Shown in pieces: positions 2,848-64,000 of a stretch of 64,000 bases of DNA. Position 1 is the stretch's first letter. Every line of letters begins with the position of its first letter. The stretch is taken from the NCBI GenBank assembly GCA_043798375.1, contig JAZDOS010000006.1, positions 9,523-73,522 on the forward strand. The letters are read 5' to 3'. The translations under genes were made by a program, and so were the position numbers. The stretch comes from Candidatus Omnitrophota bacterium (GTDB taxonomy: Bacteria; Omnitrophota; Gorgyraeia; 2-01-FULL-45-10). A model generated the notes under the pieces. That model did not search any database and was not told the origin of the DNA. It saw nothing but the letters and a program-made list of their open reading frames with translations.

Positions 2848-2888
2848 TGGCGGGGTAGCTCAGTCTGGCAGAGCAGTCGGCTCATACC
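2848..2888 (+). repeat. 41-nt 5' fragment of the tRNA(CAU) gene, a direct repeat of 10209..10249 (att-type island boundary); a TATAAT box lies about 17 nt upstream
   Basis: Exact identity tggcggggtagctcagtctggcagagcagtcggctcatacc at both sites. Identity ends inside the anticodon loop. Confidence 0.85.
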
Positions 2889-3072
2889 AAACCTTCGGGT
2901 TTCCGACGAGGTAATTTCAAAATTTTGCCAAATTTCACAATTCCTCATAATAGTTCTGTAATGCCATTCTCCTTTCGTTGTCTATAATTTTACCATATAT
3001 TGCCGTCGGAAGCCAGTCAAATGTGGAAATTAAAAAAACAAAAAATATTGGTTTTCCGACGGAAAAGGGCTT

Positions 3073-3101
3073 GACTTCTTGCCGTAGATATGATATACTT
3101 G
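3073..3101 (+). promoter_or_regulatory. Sigma-70-like promoter TTGACT-N17-TATACT for the island XRE operon
   Basis: gggcTTGACTtcttgccgtagatatgaTATACTtg read directly from the sequence. Confidence 0.5.
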
Positions 3102-3185
3102 TTTTTGTAAGATAAAAACGCCGCAAAAATTTCGGGTGAAACAAACCAACGCCGTCGGCGGGCGAAAAATATAAACCCCGATATA

Positions 3186-3199
3186 GAACGTAAGTTCTG
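3186..3199 (+). promoter_or_regulatory. Perfect palindrome AGAACGTAAGTTCT between the promoter and the XRE start; candidate operator
   Basis: 5-bp arms with a 4-nt spacer, located in the 5' UTR of the XRE gene. Confidence 0.35.
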
Positions 3200-3242
3200 T
3201 GTCGGGGTCGTTTTATTTTATACCAGAAAAGGAGGCTTGAAA

Positions 3243-3434
3243 ATGAACCGATTAAGAGAAGTAAGAAAGACAAGGGGATTAACGCAGTATAATTTGGCGA
3301 AATTGGCAGGCACTTATCAAACAAGGGTATGGCAGTGGGAACACAGCCATTATATACCACGCAAATCACAGAAAGAAGCTTTAGCAATAGCCTTAAAAAC
3401 TACCCTAACGGATATATTTCCCGATGAGCAGTAA
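3243..3434 (+). CDS. XRE-family (Cro/CI-type) HTH transcriptional regulator
   Basis: MNRLREVRKTRGLTQYNLAKLAGTYQTRVWQWE is a classic HTH_3 pattern. GGAGG lies 7 nt upstream of the ATG at 3243; the ORF-table start at 3237 is a TTG. Confidence 0.75.
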   Translation: MNRLREVRKTRGLTQYNLAKLAGTYQTRVWQWEHSHYIPRKSQKEALAIALKTTLTDIFPDEQ

Positions 3435-3654
3435 GACCTACGCTATAAGCGATTTTTACCTCTCTGCGTATCTTAAGGCAAAGGGGCTAAAACTACTTAG
3501 CACGGAAAAAGAAGGACGGCGAACCACATTCGTTTTTGAGGACACGGAAGAACGGCGAGCATTAGTATTGGCATTTTATAACAACGGCGAGGTTTCGGTA
3601 AATGCTTTTAAAAACGCAATTCAAGACCTGAAGGCGATAATCTATAACCTGTAA
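3424..3654 (+). CDS. DUF5659-like small protein of mobile elements
   Basis: 76 aa, SDFYLSAYLKAKGLKLL...RRTTFVFEDTEERRALVLAFYNNGEVSVNAFKNAIQDLKAIIYN matches the DUF5659 pattern. Confidence 0.5.
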   Translation: MSSKTYAISDFYLSAYLKAKGLKLLSTEKEGRRTTFVFEDTEERRALVLAFYNNGEVSVNAFKNAIQDLKAIIYNL

Positions 3655-3675
3655 AATTAGGAGACAAATGCAAAG

Positions 3676-4836
3676 ATGAATAGTCAAATATTGAATAGAG
3701 ATATTAGCCATGTAGAGGAAAGTTTTAAAAAATATCTGCTTTTAAAAGATACTATTGTCATTAGAGTTGTTCTGGCTACCATATTCGCAAATAGGCTTGA
3801 AGGCGACCCACTATGGCTGTTAATAGTCGCACCGCCCTCCTCGGCAAAAACGGAGATTATTAACTCGTTGAATGGACTACCAGAAATATTTCCGCTATCA
3901 AGCCTAACCGCTCATACATTAGTAAGCGGCATGATTACTAACGAGGATGGCAAAAAAGATGACAAGGATAAAAGCCTTATACTTCAACTTGATGGGAAAA
4001 TTCTGGCATTGAAGGATTTTACCTCGGTATTATCAATGCACAGAGAGCAGAGGGCCGAAATTCTATCCCAATTAAGAGAAATATATGACGGAGCATATAT
4101 AAAACGTTTTGGCACAGGTCAGGTAACGGACTGGAAAGGCAAGATAGGTATTATCGCTGGGGTTACGCCTATAATAGATAATCACAATAGCGTTTCCCAG
4201 ATGTTAGGGGAAAGATTTATTCAATTTCGGATGGAATCACCAGACCTTGTAGAAATGGCTCTTAGGGGCATAGACAACACTGGTAGGGAATGTGGGACAA
4301 GGCAACAGCTAATAGAGATGGTTAGAGATTTTGCAATAAATATACCTATGCCAACAAATGAAATCACCATACCCTCTGCAATTAGAAATAAAATAGCACA
4401 CTTAGCGGCTTTTTGCGTTGTTGCAAGAAGTGGGGTTTTACGGGACGGGCGTAGCCGTGAAATCATATATACTCCTGCACCCGAAGCCCCGCCAAGGTTA
4501 GCGAAACAATTTGTCAAGTTAGGTCAAGGATTGGCAGTTATTAGTAAACGAAGCAGTATATCTACGGAAGACTATGCAGTTATTTATAGAATTGGATTAG
4601 ACATAATTCTTAAACAACGTAGAGATATAATATTTCTGCTTGAGGCGTGCCCTAAATCCGTAAAGGACATAGCAAGAATAACGAGGTATCCTAATCCTAC
4701 TGTCTATAAAATTCTTGAGGACTTACGAAGCCTATCATTGATAGACTCAAGCGACGAACAGGCGTGGTCGCTAACGGATTCGGCAACGATGTCGTTGGGT
4801 GAAATTAAACCGTTTTCCGAAACGTCGGGGGTATAA
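3676..4836 (+). CDS. P-loop NTPase-like protein with C-terminal winged helix; putative island replication/initiator-type protein
   Basis: Degenerate Walker A LLIVAPPSSAKTE, Walker B-like KILALKDF, and C-terminal wHTH KSVKDIARITRYPNPTVYKILEDL. Sits in the rep position of an integrative element. Confidence 0.4.
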   Translation: MNSQILNRDISHVEESFKKYLLLKDTIVIRVVLATIFANRLEGDPLWLLIVAPPSSAKTEIINSLNGLPEIFPLSSLTAHTLVSGMITNEDGKKDDKDKSLILQLDGKILALKDFTSVLSMHREQRAEILSQLREIYDGAYIKRFGTGQVTDWKGKIGIIAGVTPIIDNHNSVSQMLGERFIQFRMESPDLVEMALRGIDNTGRECGTRQQLIEMVRDFAINIPMPTNEITIPSAIRNKIAHLAAFCVVARSGVLRDGRSREIIYTPAPEAPPRLAKQFVKLGQGLAVISKRSSISTEDYAVIYRIGLDIILKQRRDIIFLLEACPKSVKDIARITRYPNPTVYKILEDLRSLSLIDSSDEQAWSLTDSATMSLGEIKPFSETSGV

Positions 4837-4924
4837 GTGGTAACTTAAAATTTCAATTATTTAATTATAATATTTTAATTTTATAGATATATCCGACTTT
4901 TCGGAAAAATAGAAAGGTGGGCGT

Positions 4925-5542
4925 GTGAATACGGAAAGTAACGAAAACATACGAAATACGGAAATTTTGTCAGTGAACCAAAAGACGGCCATAACTTTAC
5001 TTTGCAACGGCCTAAGCAAGGCTGAAGTTGCGAGAAGGTTAGGCATAGAACGTGAAACAGTTTCCAAGTGGTGCAATCACGATCCCGATTTTCAACAGGC
5101 GTTAGAAAATAGGCGTAAAGAAATATGGGGCGAGAACTCATTAAGCAAGGAAGCGGAGTTAATAAGACAAGTTAAAGATACAGACTTGTTGACCCTTGAG
5201 GGCATAGAGGCCAGACTCAGGCTTGTTGACGCCCTTCTCCTAACGGATGTTATTGAACGTGATGATGGCAGAACCAAAACCATACAACGCCTTCAGATGA
5301 ATGTTGAAGCAGTGCGAAGCTATGTGGAGACTGTTCTTGCGGGAAAATCTGTGAATGATAGCGTTAACATTATTGTTAACAGGTATAAATTTTTGCTTCT
5401 CTCCTCATTGCAGAACATTCTAAAAGATGTCGCAGGAGAAGATAAGGCAACGCAAATACTGGTGTTCTTAGCACAAAAAATGGAACGCATAGAAAACGTG
5501 GAGAATTCGGCGAATGGACAGGACGAAAAACCTGAAAACTAA
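4925..5542 (+). CDS. HTH-domain protein, terminase-small-subunit-like or regulatory
   Basis: N-terminal LSVNQKTAITLLCNGLSKAEVARRLGIERETVSKW helix-turn-helix, followed by a coiled-coil-like remainder. Confidence 0.35.
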   Translation: MNTESNENIRNTEILSVNQKTAITLLCNGLSKAEVARRLGIERETVSKWCNHDPDFQQALENRRKEIWGENSLSKEAELIRQVKDTDLLTLEGIEARLRLVDALLLTDVIERDDGRTKTIQRLQMNVEAVRSYVETVLAGKSVNDSVNIIVNRYKFLLLSSLQNILKDVAGEDKATQILVFLAQKMERIENVENSANGQDEKPEN

Positions 5543-5900
5543 AACTATTATTGAATGTTTGCTCAGGTTAGAGGAGCTTACAAAACTATCTGTGGCAATT
5601 CATATAGCCTTTAAAAAATTTATTATATGGGAGGCTCAAAAGCGCATGGGCAATATAAAAGCCGAGCTTTTAACCGCCGAAGAACGGCGTTTTATAGGGG
5701 AATACTCCGCAAAATATATGCCTGCCATACGACTAAATCTTGAGCAGAATATAAGCGACTGGATAATCTGCCACGAGCAAAAACGGCAAACACTGAAAAC
5801 GCTAAGAGAAATATTTCCCGATGATATTCTATTGTTGTATATACGAGCCTCCCACATAAATGACCTAAAATCTATCCTACCTATACCGCTAAACGCCTAA
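5514..5900 (+). CDS. hypothetical protein (island)
   Basis: 128-aa ORF in an operon with its neighbours; no recognisable motif. Confidence 0.4.
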   Translation: MDRTKNLKTKTIIECLLRLEELTKLSVAIHIAFKKFIIWEAQKRMGNIKAELLTAEERRFIGEYSAKYMPAIRLNLEQNISDWIICHEQKRQTLKTLREIFPDDILLLYIRASHINDLKSILPIPLNA

Positions 5901-6127
5901 TCGTTCTCTCCCTTGTCTTCTCGGTTATAATGTGATAGTCTATACAGCAAGAAGTAGTAGTTAGCTCTTTAAAAGGAAGTGTTTTTAACGAGGACTTTCC
6001 TCAGTTTTATCAATCAACGTCTAAGGAGGGAGGCCCTTGCCTTATGGGCAAGCGGTCTTTCGCTTTAACTTAGACGTTGGGCGGAGGAATTAAAAATGCT
6101 TGCCCACTTTATTTTATAAGCACATAG

Positions 6128-6580
6128 GTGATAATTATGTTTTTCAAGCCAAAATGGTATAAAAAATTACCATTACATCTCAGGCCCGATAACAATAAAG
6201 TCGAAAACCTTGAGTCATTACGAAGAAAATTGGGTTTTCCCGATGAAATTTTTTTTATGGGCATAGTAAATTCCCGATGGACTGTAATACAGGCGCAAAA
6301 AGCAACTCTTGAAACGTTAAAAATAGATAAACCTGAAGCTACTGAAGCAGAATTGTGGGAAGGCGTTCTTTTTACAAGGTTAAAAATGAAGCTTATGATG
6401 CCAACGCCAGACGATCTACCAAGAGATGAAATTTTACATAGAATGGAAAATGTCAGTAATATAGTTGCCAATATCCATAGTTTTGATGAGCTGTTAAATT
6501 ATATCATTTCTATGGACGAAAAAAATCTTATGGATGATGACCCAACACAAAGACAAATTGACGAAGCGTTATTCGGATAG
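6128..6580 (+). CDS. hypothetical protein (island)
   Basis: 150-aa ORF ending 10 nt upstream of the Mrr_N-like gene. Confidence 0.4.
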   Translation: MIIMFFKPKWYKKLPLHLRPDNNKVENLESLRRKLGFPDEIFFMGIVNSRWTVIQAQKATLETLKIDKPEATEAELWEGVLFTRLKMKLMMPTPDDLPRDEILHRMENVSNIVANIHSFDELLNYIISMDEKNLMDDDPTQRQIDEALFG

Positions 6581-6589
6581 CATTTATCT

Positions 6590-6928
6590 ATGAATAGTGA
6601 TGGTATATCTTCTGAAATATTGTATCAGTTTTTAATACTTAAAACCCTCGTTGATATTGGTGGCTCAGCAAGGAGAGATAGAGTTTTAAATCATATAAAA
6701 CTACATTATAATAATTTCTTATCAAAAAAAGACTTAGAAGATTACGAAAGCGATAATGGAGAGCGTTGGAAAAATCACGCAAGTTTTGCTCGACAACATT
6801 TAATCTATGTTGGGTATTTAGCCAGAAACTCGCCTTATGGTATCTGGGAAATTACAGATGTTGGCAGGAGCAAGTGTGCGGAGTGGATTAAGCTTTTAAA
6901 ACAAGATTTAACACATTCTGGACTCTAA
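6590..6928 (+). CDS. standalone Mrr_N-like winged-helix protein (N-terminal DNA-binding domain of Mrr-type restriction enzymes, with no nuclease domain)
   Basis: ILYQFLILKTLVDIGGSARRDRVLNHI ... GERWKNHASFARQHLIYVGYLARNSPYGIWEITDVGRS parallels the E. coli Mrr N-terminus (YKNRAGWAHDRLKRAGL...GKWCLTPAG). Confidence 0.5.
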   Translation: MNSDGISSEILYQFLILKTLVDIGGSARRDRVLNHIKLHYNNFLSKKDLEDYESDNGERWKNHASFARQHLIYVGYLARNSPYGIWEITDVGRSKCAEWIKLLKQDLTHSGL

Positions 6929-7075
6929 TACAGGACGGGCGTGGTTAAGCTAAAATCTATCACCATAATGCTCCGCCTATTGATGTATGGGTCTTGACGT
7001 TTGTTCAAAGTTTGAAGATAGTTTACAGGGCTTATACCGAAAGAAAATTAATGGAGGCGCTATGCGAGAAATGAT

Positions 7076-7528
7076 ATGAACAGGCTTTTTATCACAATAT
7101 TATGCTTCATTTTCTTAGCGGGCTGTGCCACATCTTCAGGATATTATACAGACCCTAATAGCAAGGGTTATAAAGAGCCTCATTATGAAGGCTCCTGTTT
7201 AAAATGTAATAGGGTTTTTAGGTTTAGCAGGGCTGTATATGATGCAAGCTCAACACGCTTTGGGGCGTGCCCATTTTGCGGAATGGAGCAAAATTTAGAA
7301 ATGGCAAATCAGCGTTATTTGTATGACCAGCAAAATCAGAGTGGTTCATCAGATAATATATTAGATATGGTAAATGCTTTCAAGGGAACATCAATGCTTC
7401 CTTACCAAGTCAATTCAAACATCGAAAGCAACGTTACTAAATCTCGACAGGTTACAGTGTTTGGGCCGAGCAGAAAAAATATTTACAATAGAAATGGTCA
7501 ACAGGTCGGATACATTGATGGTCAATAA
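7076..7528 (+). CDS. lipoprotein with CxxC...CxxC zinc-ribbon
   Basis: Signal peptide with lipobox FLAGC; CLKCN and CPFCG motifs. Confidence 0.55.
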   Translation: MNRLFITILCFIFLAGCATSSGYYTDPNSKGYKEPHYEGSCLKCNRVFRFSRAVYDASSTRFGACPFCGMEQNLEMANQRYLYDQQNQSGSSDNILDMVNAFKGTSMLPYQVNSNIESNVTKSRQVTVFGPSRKNIYNRNGQQVGYIDGQ

Positions 7529-7547
7529 AATTTTTTGAGGTAAAAAT

Positions 7548-7991
7548 ATGAAATTCATACTGATTGGCTTAACGGCAATATTGTGCTTTCACAGTCCAGC
7601 ATATGCGTGGACGGAGTATAAAAATATCCGTTATGTCGACTTAGACGGCGATTCGGCTGATGAGATTGTCATTGAATCAAAACACGGGGCAGGCTATGGG
7701 CATTATATCGAGGACGTGCGAATATTCAAGGATGCGTATCCTGCGTTAGAGTTGATGTTCACGCAAAGGACGCTCGATAGCTACTCCGTTGATGAGTATA
7801 ATTACGATGTCGTATCTATTGTTGAATTTTCTGAACCAAACCAGAAAAGTGGTATACGGGATATAATGACTAAAACAGAGAAAAAGTATTATAAGGATAA
7901 CGAGCATAAGGTCTTTGACAGAACCGAAGATTTAGGCACTAAGATATTCAAGTGGGACGGAGTGAAATTTGGTGAGGCTAATGTTCAGTGA
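7548..7991 (+). CDS. secreted hypothetical protein
   Basis: N-terminal signal peptide MKFILIGLTAILCFHSPAYA. Confidence 0.5.
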   Translation: MKFILIGLTAILCFHSPAYAWTEYKNIRYVDLDGDSADEIVIESKHGAGYGHYIEDVRIFKDAYPALELMFTQRTLDSYSVDEYNYDVVSIVEFSEPNQKSGIRDIMTKTEKKYYKDNEHKVFDRTEDLGTKIFKWDGVKFGEANVQ

Positions 7992-8125
7992 TAAAATAAA
8001 CGGCGTTGCCGAAAAAATAAACACCCCTGTCTAAAATACTCCCCATTATACCTTGTCATGGTTTGTCATACCTTGCTTATCTCACCTGTTCTCAATAGGT
8101 TATAACTGTTAAATATAGGCATAGA

Positions 8126-8141
8126 TGGCACAGTTATTGCT
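8126..8141 (+). promoter_or_regulatory. Sigma-54 (RpoN) -24/-12 promoter TGGCACagttaTTGCT about 45 nt upstream of the LamG/PEP-CTERM gene
   Basis: Matches TGGCACG-N4-TTGCW with GG/GC spacing conserved. Confidence 0.55.
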
Positions 8142-8184
8142 TATATCTATTATGAGAAGTTATATCAAATAAGGGAGGTATGGC

Positions 8185-8991
8185 ATGAGACGTCTTATAG
8201 TGGCTTGCATATTTGCGTTGTTGATGGGCTGTCCGACTTTAGGGCATGCTGAAAATTATGCGTTGGATTTCGATGGAGTAGATGATTATGTTAGTGCTCC
8301 CGACAGTAATTCGTTGGACTTGACAAGTGGATTAACCATCGAGGCGTGGATTAATCCTCGCGAATATGCGAATGGCGCTAATGTGATAGCATCAAAATGG
8401 TATCCTAGCTCGTATATTTTCAAGCTACACAACGATGGAAGCGGAAAGTTGCGTATAGAATTATCTAAGGGTGGCTTCAATGACCTAGCTAATCTTAAAG
8501 GGAACACTGCGGTTTCACTTGACCAATGGACACATGTAGCTACGACCTTCAATGGGGCAGAAACAAAGCTTTTTGTTAATGGTAGTTTCGATGGCTCTCA
8601 GACTCAATCTGGTTCAATTGTTCCGAACTCAAAACCGTTTTATATTGGAAGTGTGGATGGTGGCGAAGTATTTCATGGATTGATTGATGAGGTTCGTATT
8701 TGGAATTATGCTCGGTCGCAACAGCAGTTACAGGATTATATGAATGGCCCGCTAACAGGTAATGAACAAGGCTTGATGGGCTATTGGAATTTTGATGAAG
8801 GCACGGGAAATACGCTCGGCGATTTAACGCAATTTGGGAATGATGGCCAGATATATGGTGCTCGATGGGTTTCGTCAGATAGCCCAGTAACTACGCCTGT
8901 CCCAGAGCCAACATCGCTAATGCTTCTTAGTATGGGTTTATTAGGAGCAGGAGTATTAAAGGCCAAAAGGCGAAATTTCAAAAAATCATAG
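8185..8991 (+). CDS. LamG-like (concanavalin A-like lectin/Laminin_G_3) secreted protein with C-terminal PEP-CTERM sorting signal
   Basis: Signal peptide; GLTIEAWINP...WTHVATTFNG...LFVNG...IDEVRIWN Laminin_G_3 pattern; C-terminal VPEPTSLMLLSMGLLGAGVLKAKRR has the PEP motif, a TM helix and a basic tail. Confidence 0.75.
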   Translation: MRRLIVACIFALLMGCPTLGHAENYALDFDGVDDYVSAPDSNSLDLTSGLTIEAWINPREYANGANVIASKWYPSSYIFKLHNDGSGKLRIELSKGGFNDLANLKGNTAVSLDQWTHVATTFNGAETKLFVNGSFDGSQTQSGSIVPNSKPFYIGSVDGGEVFHGLIDEVRIWNYARSQQQLQDYMNGPLTGNEQGLMGYWNFDEGTGNTLGDLTQFGNDGQIYGARWVSSDSPVTTPVPEPTSLMLLSMGLLGAGVLKAKRRNFKKS

Positions 8992-10046: not shown

Positions 10047-10209
10047 ATCGGCAAAACAGGGTTGCTAACAGAGGAAATTTGTGATATAATCGGCGTTACT
10101 TTGAAATGATTTACTGTTGTCGTCGAATAGTTGGGGCGTGATAACTGCTCGGTGAGATTTTGACTTTTAGCGGTTTTGTCGCAAGTCTTTTTACGTAACG
10201 AAGTTACGT

Positions 10210-10286
10210 GGCGGGGTAGCTCAGTCTGGCAGAGCAGTCGGCTCATACCCGGCGTGTCACTGGTTCAAATCCAGTCCCCGCTACCA
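10210..10286 (+). tRNA. tRNA with CAU anticodon (Met, initiator or Ile2-lysidine not distinguishable), 77 nt with encoded CCA
   Basis: Cloverleaf: acceptor GGCGGGG/CCCCGCU (G1-U72), D-arm GCUC/GAGC, anticodon stem GUCGG/CCGGC with loop CUCAUAC, T-arm ACUGG-UUCAAAU-CCAGU. Confidence 0.85.
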
Positions 10287-10411: not shown

Positions 10412-10431
10412 AAATCCAGTCCCCGCTACCA
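10412..10431 (+). repeat. 20-nt copy of the tRNA 3' end (aaatccagtccccgctacca) 125 nt downstream of the tRNA; second att-like scar or tRNA-like minihelix remnant
   Basis: Exact match to the tRNA 3' terminus. Preceded by ggcgggc and the palindrome gcccgcctctggcgggc. Confidence 0.6.
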
Positions 10432-16105: not shown

Positions 16106-17038
16106 CTACTTTATATGCCTGCCGTAGCTTGTCTCGATCGTCTTTACAAGATTGGTAAGGACTTCGTTAACCGGCGTCGCTATGCCGAGCGTTTTCCCCT
16201 GCCTCACGATCGCGCCGTTTATAAAATCTATCTCTGTCCGTTTCCTGTTCAGGACATCCTGGAGCATGCTCGAGATATTCTGGGCCGTTCCCTTGCAGAC
16301 CGACTCGACTTTCTGTATAGGGTCGTCGTACGCCAATTTTACGCGCTTACGCTTGACGATCTTCGCCGCCTCCTGGACAGCGTTTCTTAGAAGAGCGCGG
16401 GATTCCTCGTATTCGATCAGGGCGCCGTTATTCAACCGCGTTATGGCGGTAAGGGCGTTTATTCCGACATTGATTATAAGCTTACTCCAGATGACCGAAT
16501 CTATATCCTTGGATATCTTTGTTTCGAACCCGCACTTATTTAGAATGCCCGATATTTCTTTCAACATGCCGGAGAGCCTGCCGTCGGCTTTGCCTATTAT
16601 CGTATCGCCCCTGCCGGCGTGCCTTACGCGGCCGATCCCCAAAAGCGTCGCTCCGTGGTTTGTGACGCCCGCTATCACCCTATCCTCGCCGAAATACTCA
16701 TTGAGTATCTGGACGTTGCCGATACCGTTCTGCATGGTCATCACATAGGTGTTTTCGCCGACCATCTCCTTAATACCCCTGCAGGCATCTTCGGTCGAAT
16801 AACTCTTGACGCAGATTATGGCAAGATCGCATACGCCGATCTCTTTGGCATCGCAGGCCACGCTCAATTTTGCCTGAAAGGCGTTATTCGGCGTCTCCAC
16901 CTTAACGGAATTATCGCGGATATATCCCGCCCTTTCGGGAAGCTTGTCATACAGCCACACTTCCTCTTTTGTCTTATTCTTAAGATACGCGGATATAAGG
17001 CAGCCCATCGCGCCCGGGCCGACGATGGCGATCTTCAT
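16106..17038 (-). CDS. panE: 2-dehydropantoate 2-reductase
   Basis: MKIAIVGPGAMGCLISAYL Rossmann N-terminus and ApbA/PanE architecture. Confidence 0.75.
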   Translation of the reverse strand: MKIAIVGPGAMGCLISAYLKNKTKEEVWLYDKLPERAGYIRDNSVKVETPNNAFQAKLSVACDAKEIGVCDLAIICVKSYSTEDACRGIKEMVGENTYVMTMQNGIGNVQILNEYFGEDRVIAGVTNHGATLLGIGRVRHAGRGDTIIGKADGRLSGMLKEISGILNKCGFETKISKDIDSVIWSKLIINVGINALTAITRLNNGALIEYEESRALLRNAVQEAAKIVKRKRVKLAYDDPIQKVESVCKGTAQNISSMLQDVLNRKRTEIDFINGAIVRQGKTLGIATPVNEVLTNLVKTIETSYGRHIK

Positions 17039-17040
17039 CC

Positions 17041-17136
17041 CGTTAGACCTCCTATTTTCATTATCAAAATCATTTTTAAATCAAAAATATTAATATACCC
17101 TACCTGCAAGAAATACCATCTGTGAGGAGGTCTAAC
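17041..17136 (-). promoter_or_regulatory. 14-bp perfect inverted repeat (CCGTTAGACCTCCT / AGGAGGTCTAACGG) spanning the panE RBS; candidate RBS-sequestering long-range hairpin
   Basis: One arm is the SD AGGAGG immediately before the panE ATG; the complementary anti-SD arm lies 68 nt further upstream in the transcript. Confidence 0.4.
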
Positions 17137-17148
17137 GGGATTCATCGG

Positions 17149-30566: not shown

Positions 30567-30575
30567 AAACTTTTA

Positions 30576-30637
30576 CCGATACAACCTGCGAGGTTTGCCG
30601 GCAGCCGTCTACCGGTTAACCTCGCAGGTTGTATCGG
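30576..30637. repeat. REP-like palindromic element (20-bp perfect stem ccgatacaacctgcgaggtt / aacctcgcaggttgtatcgg, 22-nt loop); one arm encodes the C-terminus and stop of rnhB
   Basis: A near-identical copy lies at 63656..63717 and a shorter variant at 36124..36173. Confidence 0.8.
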
Positions 30638-31269
30638 TATTTCGCCAGCGATTTGACCGGCTGGAAGCTGAAACGGTGGATGGGTGACGGGCCATGCTCT
30701 TCCAGGGCCTTCATGTGGAGTCTTGTGCCGTAGCCCTTATGCCTGGCGAACCCGTATTGCGGATAAAGGCTGTCGTATTTTACCATGATGCGGTCTCGGG
30801 TGACCTTTGCGACGATCGATGCGGCCGCTATCGAGAGGCTCTTCGAGTCGCCGCCCACGATGCACTTGATCGGGCATTTCGTCGGAAGCTTCATGCGCCC
30901 GTCAACAAGAGCGTATTCGGGTTTGGCCTTGAGATTATCTACGGCTTCCTGCATGGCCCTGACGGTGGCCCGGTAGATATTGATCCGGTCTATCGTCTTC
31001 TCGTCGATGATGCCGACGCCGACAAATGCCTTATCGAGTATCTCGCGGTAGGCCCTCTCTCTTTTTTTGGGGGATAATCTTTTGGAATCGTCTATATCTT
31101 CTAAAAAATTGAAATCCTTGAGAATGACTGCGCCCGCGACGACAGGGCCGGCCAGCGGCCCGCGGCCTGCCTCATCGATTCCGGCGATCAGCTTGAAGCC
31201 CTGGCTATTCAGCCTCTTCTCTATCTTGAGGAGGATTTTTCGTCTCAGAGTGTTCGATCTTCTCTTCAA
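30616..31269 (-). CDS. rnhB: ribonuclease HII
   Basis: [24 protein letters not shown]. The ORF-table start is a TTG overlapping rplS by 65 nt, so the true start is uncertain. Confidence 0.8.
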
Positions 31270-36123: not shown

Positions 36124-36173
36124 TCAACCTCGCAGGTTGCCTTCACGGTAAACCGATAGGCAACCTGCGAGGT
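36124..36173. repeat. REP-like palindrome variant (caacctcgcaggttgcc ... ggcaacctgcgaggtt) between rho and rpmE
   Basis: Shares the AACCTCGCAGGTTG core with the 30576 and 63656 elements. Confidence 0.65.
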
Positions 36174-36184
36174 TATATATACGG

Positions 36185-37432: not shown

Positions 37433-38013
37433 ACGATCTCCCTCCATACACTTCTTACCTGAGCCCTTGTCCATGACCTCGTCCGGCTGTTGTCGATTAC
37501 GAAATCCGCCACTTCCATTTTCTTCCTTATCGGTAATTGATTTTTTATTCGTTTTAATATTTCCTCCCTTTCGATGCGGAATTTATTTTCGCATCTTTTT
37601 ATTTGTTCGCTCTTTGAGCAAATGACCACTACTATCTTATCGGTTATCTTCGCCAAACCCGCTTCGATCAAAAGCGGCGCGTCTATAACCGCTACACCTC
37701 TACACCTGAGGCTTTTTAATTTTTTTCTGATTATTTTTATTACTTCAGGATGGACAATTCTATTGAGGCGCCGCAATTTTGACCGGCTCTCAAAAACCGC
37801 CTTCCCGAGCTTACGCCTGTCGATATTTGCGCGGCTATCCAGAATGTTCGCGCCGAATGTGCTGACAATTTTTCTATACGCGATCGAACCTTTCTTAATG
37901 ACCGTATGGGCTATCCGGTCGGCGTCTATCACTTTCGCGCCGAGAGATCTGAATATAGACCCGACAAATGTCTTTCCTGTGCCGAAACCGCCTGTCAGCC
38001 CTATAACCGTCAC
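37423..38013 (-). CDS. coaE: dephospho-CoA kinase
   Basis: [18 protein letters not shown]-loop. Confidence 0.85.
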
Positions 38014-38063
38014 CCCGCACCTTCTTTCACCCCCTCACCCTCCAAAGAAGGTGCGGGGTTCAT

Positions 38064-63643: not shown

Positions 63644-63655
63644 ACTATTTCCTCG

Positions 63656-63717
63656 CCGATACAACCTGCGAGGTTTTCCGGCAGCTATCTACCTGTTAAC
63701 CTCGCAGGTTGTATCGG
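63656..63717. repeat. REP-like palindromic element (same 20-bp arms as 30576..30637); the right arm encodes the C-terminus of the SpoIID-like gene
   Basis: ccgatacaacctgcgaggtt-N22-aacctcgcaggttgtatcgg. Confidence 0.8.
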
Positions 63718-64000
63718 AAATTTCGGTGCCGGGATAGTAGAATTTCAGGATCTCTTCCGCTTTCTTGCCCTTGCGCGCCTGGCCGTAGGCGCCCCACTGG
63801 CACATGCCGGCACCATGGCCCCAGCCCATGCCTTCCAAAACGAGCGAATTCAGTTTTACGGACGCGTCGAATTTCGTAGACCGGACTTCATTAGGGCCGA
63901 TAAGCTGGCGAAAATCCTTGCCGGTCAAGACTACCGAAATGCCTGCGTCGTCTTTAATCTCTATTTTATCGACTCTATCTGATCTATTTTTCGACAGGAC
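63689..64000 (-). CDS. SpoIID/LytB domain protein, C-terminal part; N-terminus lies beyond the window end
   Basis: GWGHGAGMCQWGAYGQA motif of the SpoIID/LytB family. Confidence 0.6.
   Translation of the reverse strand, partial: VLSKNRSDRVDKIEIKDDAGISVVLTGKDFRQLIGPNEVRSTKFDASVKLNSLVLEGMGWGHGAGMCQWGAYGQARKGKKAEEILKFYYPGTEISDTTCEVNR

Follow-up and report, generated by a model that had tools for sequence, protein, structure and literature searches.

A predicted MCM-like initiator and a putative origin in a small tRNA-Met integrative element of an Omnitrophota bacterium

How a small integrative element of an uncultured bacterium might begin its own replication is the question raised by the DNA studied here, a 64-kb window (the whole stretch analyzed, 64,000 nucleotides of contig JAZDOS010000006.1, numbered from its first letter) from a metagenome-assembled genome (MAG) of Candidatus Omnitrophota. 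An island of 7,361 bp, measured from repeat to repeat, lies in a tRNA-Met gene of this window, and five consecutive plus-strand genes between positions 3,073 and 5,900 encode a xenobiotic response element (XRE)-type regulator, a DUF5659 protein, a 386-aa protein, a helix-turn-helix (HTH) protein and a hypothetical protein, in the order and at the positions given by the initial annotation. We consider it likely that control and replication of a 7.36-kb integrative element inserted in tRNA-Met are encoded in this region, its core, in which the 386-aa protein, hereafter called Rep, is MCM-like and the origin lies at the end of the rep gene. All functional statements on the island are drawn from sequence.

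The fold, motifs and relatives of Rep

The initial annotation could not assign the 386-aa protein to any family, and the database searches led to the same result. At E<=1, Pfam gave no match of Rep to MCM, DUF927, DUF3987, VirE, D5_N, PriCT, DnaB_C, AAA_25, Orc1/Cdc6 or DnaA, and no family was found in PHROGs. The C-terminal winged helix-turn-helix (wHTH) alone was recognized by Pfam, NCBIfam and PADLOC, and both phmmer and a family-profile search of the PDB sequences returned wHTH regulators only.

The predicted structure was more informative. An AlphaFold2 (AF2) model of Rep built from 37 stand-alone family members (pLDDT 90, pTM 0.90) has an MCM-type AAA+ fold followed by a C-terminal winged helix, and the top 50 Foldseek matches in the PDB were all MCM subunits, eukaryotic as well as archaeal, with E-values from 1e-10 to 3.5e-8, a probability of 1.0 and TMq of 0.43-0.56. 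Among viral folds, two uncultured phage proteins of the same fold came first (TM 0.76-0.79); next came helicases, primases, and DUF3987 and MoxR-like ATPases.

Across the family, K58, T59, E60, D114, F115, T164, R180, F181 and R274 are invariant, and K143 is nearly so (at least 90%). Compared with a segment of MCM2, which was checked against the PDB and used as the MCM reference, these residues appear to follow the MCM motifs in order and spacing, the equivalence being one of position and not of significant alignment (Table 1). The Walker A motif of Rep (APPSSAKTE, residues 52-60), described as degenerate in the initial annotation, resembles the MCM type xxPxxAK[ST][QE], and the KDF at residues 113-115 stands at the Walker B position. 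In the model, a beta-hairpin (140-154) lies between a helix (126-137) and a strand (158-163). The N-terminal OB-fold/zinc domain of MCM is missing, as only about 45 helical residues precede Walker A. Based on the model, Rep is like an MCM-type ring ATPase, yet it stands outside the MCM family by sequence criteria.

Table 1. Positional correspondence between conserved Rep residues and MCM motifs.
Motif	Rep residues	Rep family	MCM
Walker A	K58-T59-E60	xPPSxAKTE	GDPGTAKSQ
Walker B position	D114-F115	KDF	DEF
Predicted pre-sensor-1 hairpin (140-154)	K143	Lys	hairpin Lys
Sensor 1	T164-P165	AGVTP	AAANP
Arg finger	R180-F181	GERF	SRF
Sensor 2	R274	Arg	Arg

Concerning the distribution of the family, 434 homologs were found in a word-indexed search, and an exhaustive profile search yielded 8,667 clusters (50% identity, E<=1e-3), 4,254 of which reached E<=1e-30. 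Most sources are uncultured bacteria, DPANN archaea and phage contigs, with a spread over Omnitrophota, the candidate phyla radiation (CPR)/Patescibacteria, DPANN, Acidobacteriota, Actinomycetota and uncultured phages. IMG/VR held 101 relatives, many on contigs of 38-64 kb, and no match to Rep was obtained by tblastn in INPHARED phages or PLSDB plasmids.

Many relatives are 500-900 aa long and carry the Rep module at their C-terminus. In 67 such long relatives, the enzymatic partners were primases only, always N-terminal and belonging to three or four unrelated classes, the partner domains being Prim-Pol (14/67), PriCT_1 (8/67), Toprim_2 (8/67), NrS1-1 HBD (5/67), Zn_ribbon_DnaG (5/67) and RepB_primase (3/67); no other helicase domain was found in the primase-fused proteins. 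One Toprim-Rep fusion is encoded beside a separate DnaG zinc-ribbon open reading frame (ORF) on a phage contig that also has genes for capsid, portal and TerL, a layout like that of T7 gp4. Since the fusions involve primases only and the module occurs in phages, it appears to occupy the slot of the replicative helicase. The MCM fold, the primase fusions and the presence in phage genomes thus strengthen the earlier suggestion of an initiator-like ATPase with a winged helix and a role in replication.

A putative origin at the 3' end of rep

The initial annotation had suggested looking downstream of 4836 for an origin of the iteron type, and at 4813-4908, across the rep stop codon, paired inverted sites with an A+T-rich spacer were found. 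The left site, TTTTCCGAAACGTCGG, overlaps the last rep codons, and the right site, CCGACTTTTCGGAAAA, is its inverted copy beyond the stop codon, with 64 nt enclosed between the two (Table 2). The spacer contains the most A+T-rich 47-mer of the window. The exact CCGAAANGTCG occurs in the window twice only, at 4817 (+) and 4894 (-), and inverted repeats of the quality of this pair were obtained in 0 of 20 shuffles. The site core, CCGA-N4-TCGG, is a short palindrome, as would be expected of a site bound by a dimeric winged helix.

The same paired site was found at the rep stop codon of independent elements in other genomes (L001/L009, L002-L004, L008, L061, L107, L175 and L177), with spacers of 25-70 nt that are mostly A+T-rich. 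Across 82 genome-derived loci, site density was 0.79/kb from -250 to +200 nt of the rep stop versus 0.014/kb elsewhere. The 20 loci bearing the site come from Omnitrophota, Saccharibacteria and other CPR phyla, Acidobacteriota, Actinomycetota, Myxococcota and a gammaproteobacterium.

When located in the coding tail, the site encodes the peptide [PS]E[MTK]S at the end of Rep, and the codons used are almost fixed: GAA for Glu in 21 of 23 cases (background 50%), TCG for the final Ser in 15 of 23 (background 17%) and CCC for Pro in 14 of 15. This fixation persists in genomes of 62-69% G+C. Codons that stay fixed even in such genomes indicate a constraint on the DNA and not on the peptide.

Related islands with another rep gene allowed the site to be assigned. 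The islands L089-L094 retain a DUF5659 or SpoVG-like gene, the gene of the 205-aa HTH protein (about 75% identity) and the 128-aa gene. In their rep slot (e.g., L092 8643-9848), they encode a protein of 401-405 aa that has GGSSAGKS as its Walker A, ends in a wHTH and is precomputed as Pfam PF27228 (MTBMA_p00010_2nd); BLAST detected no similarity between this protein and Rep. The CCGAAANGTC site is not present in these islands; their spacer between rep and the HTH gene contains a TATAGGT/ACCTATA repeat cluster around an A+T-rich stretch. The repeats therefore co-vary with the type of rep and not with the neighboring genes, by which the paired sites are assigned to Rep.

Two further repeats were observed. 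Right of the putative origin, four ACG[GA]AA[AT] repeats lie 6-11 nt apart (4931-4964) within the opening codons of the 205-aa gene. Further, a reverse scan of metagenomes for paired sites with a 45-75-nt spacer collected 80 loci, and long hairpin repeats, GTTCCGAAACGTCGGCATAT...ATATGCCGACGTTTCGGAAC, unrelated to Rep, were present in L184, L194, L215, L220, L227 and L229.

To our knowledge, only a few MCM-like helicases of bacterial mobile elements have been studied, namely BcMCM, Cch of the staphylococcal cassette chromosome mec (SCCmec) and Rep2 of Staphylococcus aureus pathogenicity islands (SaPIs). The SaPI Reps are initiator-helicases whose C-terminal winged helix binds iterons that surround an A+T-rich centre immediately 3' of rep (PMC9371898). 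Like Rep, SaPI Rep2 and SCCmec Cch combine an MCM-type AAA+ domain with a C-terminal winged helix in small integrase-bearing islands, and their origin also lies directly 3' of rep, with oppositely oriented repeats and an A+T-rich centre (PMC9371898). The island Rep likewise joins ATPase and C-terminal winged helix in one polypeptide, with the predicted origin immediately 3' of its gene. The swap of rep and repeats in L089-L094 mirrors the way in which SaPIs exchange rep-ori cassettes (PMC9371898).

There are also differences. No sequence relationship with the SaPI/SCCmec proteins was detectable, Rep having no DUF927 match at E<=1, and the island has no adjacent primase gene. Whereas SaPI/SCCmec origins use 6-12 short iterons, the island has two pseudo-palindromic sites of 13-16 nt, one of them inside the rep coding sequence. 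In the Rep family, moreover, the site is conserved across phyla, and the hosts are uncultured Omnitrophota, CPR, DPANN and others.

Archaeal and eukaryotic MCM proteins provide the best fold matches and share with Rep the order and spacing of motifs, the xxPxxAK[ST][QE] Walker A and the C-terminal winged helix, but Rep differs in lacking their N-terminal OB-fold/zinc domain, in having KDF for the DEFD of Walker B, and in having Thr for Asn at sensor 1. BcMCM, a primase-MCM fusion of a Bacillus cereus prophage, has a Prim-Pol fusion as do Rep relatives (PMC2715239, PMC3273815). The primase-helicase-winged helix replication proteins of bacterial and archaeal mobile elements, with DUF927, DUF3987, VirE or MCM in the helicase slot, also resemble the long relatives in combining a primase, a PriCT/zinc finger, a P-loop ATPase and a winged helix, and for them, too, the position of the ATPase is what points to the helicase slot, whereas the ATPase of Rep lies outside those Pfam families and stands alone with its winged helix (PMC5862659). 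The present system is distinct from the known ones in that it has no sequence model, altered catalytic motifs, an island form devoid of primase, a two-site putative origin that is partly coding, and a site shared across phyla.

The island, its control genes and its cargo

The island setting with an integrase, as claimed by the initial annotation, was borne out by a perfect 41-nt direct repeat, the intact tRNA, the Phage_integrase match and a G+C content of about 0.39 within the island versus about 0.51 in the flanks (Table 2). The integrase gene lies beside the att site and the direct repeats derive from the tRNA, as in a tyrosine-recombinase element in a tRNA gene. In the Rfam scan, only the tRNA matched.

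In integrative elements, the att repeat in a tRNA gene is usually the 3' part of the tRNA. Here, it is the 5' half of tRNA-Met; therefore, the position of the island is upstream of the intact tRNA gene, whose promoter it must provide. A promoter-like site in the spacer between int and the tRNA would drive the reconstituted tRNA-Met. Downstream of this gene, a perfect 20-nt copy of its 3' end (10267-10286) recurs at 10412-10431, 145 nt further on, and the 125 nt between the copies resemble the scar that a second integration at the same tRNA would leave.

The same att site, with the same 41-nt repeat, is occupied by a sister island in another Omnitrophota genome (L092/L094), whose integrase is nearly identical (1e-195). 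Sister islands measure 8-12 kb and have the same compact layout; their integrases and att sites may be the same or may differ, the att sites being tRNA-Met, a split Mg-chelatase (comM-like) gene or positions beside tRNA-Ser genes. A related element of about 11.6 kb (L001 3301-16618) has a serine recombinase, splits a Mg-chelatase (comM-like) gene and carries as cargo a large N6/N4 methyltransferase and an ATPase.

Table 2. Features of the island, with positions in the 64-kb window.
Feature	Position	Strand	Remarks
attL	2848..2888	+	displaced 5' half of tRNA-Met; left copy of the perfect 41-nt direct repeat of 10209-10249
Palindrome TTTTCCGACGGAAAA	3052..3066		abuts -35 hexamer; candidate operator
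Sigma-70-type promoter	3071..3099	+	TTGACT-17-TATACT, extended -10 TG; 10/12 matches
Leader hairpin and T-run	3175..3218	+	15 bp (3175-3208), 7 G-C pairs; terminator- or attenuator-like
XRE (Cro/CI-type) HTH regulator, 65 aa	3237..3434	+	HTH_3/HTH_31; PHROG repressor families to 8e-9
DUF5659 protein, 76 aa	3424..3654	+	Pfam PF18903, 1.8e-16
Rep, candidate MCM-like AAA+ initiator-helicase, 386 aa	3676..4836	+	AF2 model, Foldseek, primase fusions in relatives
Rep AAA+ core plus lid	3808..4605	+	residues ~45-310; AF2 model
Rep winged helix	4612..4773	+	residues 313-366; Pfam HTH_5 2.5e-5 over 314-357
Putative origin	4813..4908		two inverted 16-nt sites straddling rep stop, A+T-rich spacer
Left origin site TTTTCCGAAACGTCGG	4813..4828		overlaps last rep codons (F-S-E-T-S-G)
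Putative A+T-rich unwinding region	4846..4892		95.7% A+T
Right origin site CCGACTTTTCGGAAAA	4893..4908		inverted copy
HTH protein, 205 aa	4925..5542	+	TerS-type or psq-type N-terminal HTH, helical C-terminal region
128-aa protein	5514..5900	+	overlaps HTH gene by 29 nt; always paired with HTH gene
Cargo region	6128..8991	+	five genes, the first for a 150-aa protein (no assigned family)
Mrr_N-domain protein	6590..6928	+	cargo
Putative lipoprotein with zinc ribbon	7076..7528	+	cargo
Secreted protein, 147 aa	7548..7991	+	cargo
Laminin_G_3/PEP-CTERM protein	8185..8991	+	cargo
Tyrosine integrase, 320 aa	9084..10046	-	Phage_integrase 3.1e-27; adjoins intact tRNA
Promoter-like site	10062..10090	+	TTGCTA-17-TATAAT with TG; int-tRNA spacer, inside island
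attR repeat	10209..10249	+	within intact tRNA-Met(CAT) gene 10210-10286

The strong sigma-70-like promoter of the initial annotation was found again, with its extended -10. The palindrome AGAACGTAAGTTCT, which that annotation had read as an operator, is present at 3185-3198; this reading was rejected, since what the palindrome forms is the end of a long hairpin in the leader, followed by a T-run, and it lies downstream of the -10 by about 90 nt, an atypical position for an operator. The leader RNA (3105-3245) folds with -45.1 kcal/mol (z = -4.3 versus shuffled sequence), and we read the hairpin as a terminator- or attenuator-like structure. In the leader of the XRE operon (3105-3220), the hairpin and T-run stand directly before the ribosome-binding site (RBS); therefore, the strong promoter might yield a short RNA or be subject to attenuation/antitermination control.

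Judged by its place next to the -35 hexamer, TTTTCCGACGGAAAA may be a better operator candidate than AGAACGTAAGTTCT. It includes two of the TTCCGACG copies that cluster between attL and the promoter, at 2901-2908(+), 3004-3011(-), 3054-3061(+) and 3057-3064(-). These copies have TTTCCGA in common with the origin arms and might be arm sites of the integrase or be bound by XRE or Rep. Over the whole window, neither TTTCCGA nor TTCCGACG is enriched, and their clustering in two regulatory spacers is the sole notable feature.

The XRE regulator scores 23.6 bits in Pfam HTH_3 against a cut-off of 23, and its true start is likely the ATG at 3243 (63 aa), behind the RBS AAGGAGG. The DUF5659 match reaches 60.1 bits versus a gathering score of 23.6. 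A DUF5659-like gene stands upstream of rep in 16 other loci and a SpoVG-like gene in 7, and each of the two occurs with both types of rep. The 128-aa protein has no match in Pfam, PHROGs or other family libraries; in L089-L094, its homologs (1e-42 and 5e-37) are encoded after the HTH gene, and this conservation in related islands (1e-42) shows that the ORF is a real gene. The DUF5659, 205-aa HTH and 128-aa proteins are putative accessory factors.

In the cargo region, PADLOC gave no convincing defence match. The 147-aa secreted protein is shared with L002 1694-2158 (3e-45), an otherwise different island with a different integrase, which suggests cargo exchange between elements. The 228-nt non-coding spacer at 5900-6128 holds a perfect 11-nt inverted repeat around a G+C-rich hairpin (6015-6079; RNA fold z = -2.4; no Rfam match). 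Outside the island, five more inverted repeats, each 16 nt or longer and with a short spacer, were found at 17036-17142, 30573-30640, 36125-36175, 38011-38060 and 63655-63718, with none expected in shuffles.

A replication model and its alternatives

The proposed sequence of events can be outlined as follows. The XRE protein and the leader hairpin would hold the operon off, and upon induction the integrase would excise the island as a circle. The winged helix of Rep would then bind the paired CCGAAANGTCGG sites, the A+T-rich spacer would melt, and Rep may load itself as an MCM-type ring helicase (3'-5' polarity), as do SaPI Rep and SCCmec Cch. Priming and synthesis would be left to enzymes of the host or a helper, since Rep stands alone without a primase domain. 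For the transfer between cells, a satellite lifestyle, mobilization or another route are candidates.

Several results weigh against an element replicated by an MCM-like Rep from an origin at the end of rep. At the sequence level, no membership of Rep in MCM was found, there being no match to Pfam MCM (PF00493); hhalign of the family profile with human MCM2 520-665 aligned the Walker A region alone (20 columns, probability 3%), and the plain pairwise alignment was weak (z = 3.5). In the Rep family, Walker B is KDF and not DE, and sensor 1 is Thr and not Asn; therefore, the ATPase/helicase competence of Rep is not assured. The origin site is carried by 20 of 82 genome-derived and 2 of 77 viral loci of the family. 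The reverse scan found mostly unrelated palindromes, with a Rep homolog in 11 of the 80 loci, adjacent to the site in 10, so the site pair alone is not diagnostic of Rep. Further, no excisionase was recognizable in the island and no primase is encoded there.

Among the alternatives, the one that keeps an appreciable, if minor, share of our expectation is a phage satellite of the PICI or PICMI (minimalist phage-inducible chromosomal island) type, induced by a helper phage, in which the 205-aa protein (189 aa in NCBI, from the GTG at 4973) would be a factor resembling the small terminase subunit (TerS) and steer the large subunit (TerL) of the helper to island DNA. In common with PICI/PICMI, the island is small and site-specifically integrated, has no capsid genes, and encodes an integrase, a small regulator and a replication protein of its own, and a PICMI has only about six genes; the regulator, however, is XRE-type where those elements have AlpA or Stl, and the rep is MCM-like where theirs is DUF3987 or DUF5906 (PMC10803314). 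Classical PICIs are longer than the 7.4 kb of the island, and no helper phage, pac/cos site, capsid-size gene or interference gene was identified.

The 205-aa protein itself gives a divided answer. Its top PHROG matches are TerS families (7344 at 6e-9 over residues 11-121, plus four more, including 2538 at 7e-8, 3218 at 3e-6 and 4044), and Pfam Terminase_5 reaches 26.0 bits versus a cut-off of 20.3 (8.6e-6), CENP-B_N (1e-7) and HTH_Tnp_1_2 likewise attaining their Pfam cut-offs. However, the TerS matches are centered on the HTH. The AF2 model, made from 7 sequences, is of moderate confidence (pLDDT 72.7). Its best PDB fold match is a prophage protein of Bacillus cereus, 2AO9 (probability 0.99, E 0.2), whereas at E<=0.001 no PDB fold was matched, TerS rings included, nor was there a significant PDB sequence match. 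No partner TerL gene was found in the island among ORFs or by Pfam and PHROGs.

In other elements, too, the gene after rep encodes an HTH protein of about 205-215 aa, and the 211- and 215-aa proteins there have no detectable homology to the 205-aa protein. Its close homologs number only 7, all in Omnitrophota islands; in phage collections, INPHARED gave one HTH-only match and IMG/VR none. A packaging role is possible. The TerS-like N-terminus of the initial annotation thus stands as a resemblance in the HTH, with neither a convincing fold match nor a TerL nearby. Likewise, of the PICI-like core that it had proposed, integration, regulation, replication and the lack of structural genes hold, whereas for the hijacking of packaging there is only the HTH-centered resemblance to TerS.

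Improbable, in our judgment, is the reading in which Rep is not a helicase, acting instead as an ATPase-impaired origin-binding initiator or loader, or as a transcription or defence NTPase, with the paired sites as an autoregulatory operator or terminator. The deviant Walker B and sensor 1 are family-invariant, as this reading would have it, and sites that overlap the end of rep could also affect transcription into the downstream genes. However, it would have to account for the fusion of three or four unrelated primase classes to the N-terminus of relatives that have no other helicase domain, and for the invariance of the Walker A Lys/Thr, the Arg finger and the sensor-2 Arg, nearly matched by the hairpin Lys. 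Nor did PADLOC find any match outside the wHTH, and the sites co-vary with the type of rep and not with the neighboring genes. Finally, a decayed prophage remnant that kept integrase, regulator and replication genes by chance is highly improbable: members of the Rep family do occur in full-size phage contigs and the cargo genes have no clear role, but the 41-nt repeats are perfect, the integrase is intact, the core contains no pseudogenes and sister islands of 8-12 kb, whether or not their integrases and att sites are the same, share the compact layout.

We return to the control and replication core of an integrative element, with an MCM-like Rep and an origin at the end of its gene, as the likely reading. 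A farther-reaching version is rather doubtful: these would be the first satellite-like or otherwise autonomously replicating mini-elements described for Omnitrophota and related uncultured lineages, served by an unnamed and very large family of MCM-like self-loading initiator-helicases, with CCGAAANGTCGG in the 3' end of its own gene unchanged across bacterial phyla and with the 205-aa protein as a TerS-like packaging factor.

The significance of the likely reading is that a family of about 8,700 clusters without a family model would fill the slot of the replicative helicase, accompanied by a short, conserved candidate origin. Rep and this candidate origin may provide a handle for annotating replication modules in "dark" mobile elements and may help to recognize the small integrative elements of uncultured lineages. 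Further, they may serve to study the co-evolution of initiator and site in a case where the site sits in the coding sequence of the initiator itself.

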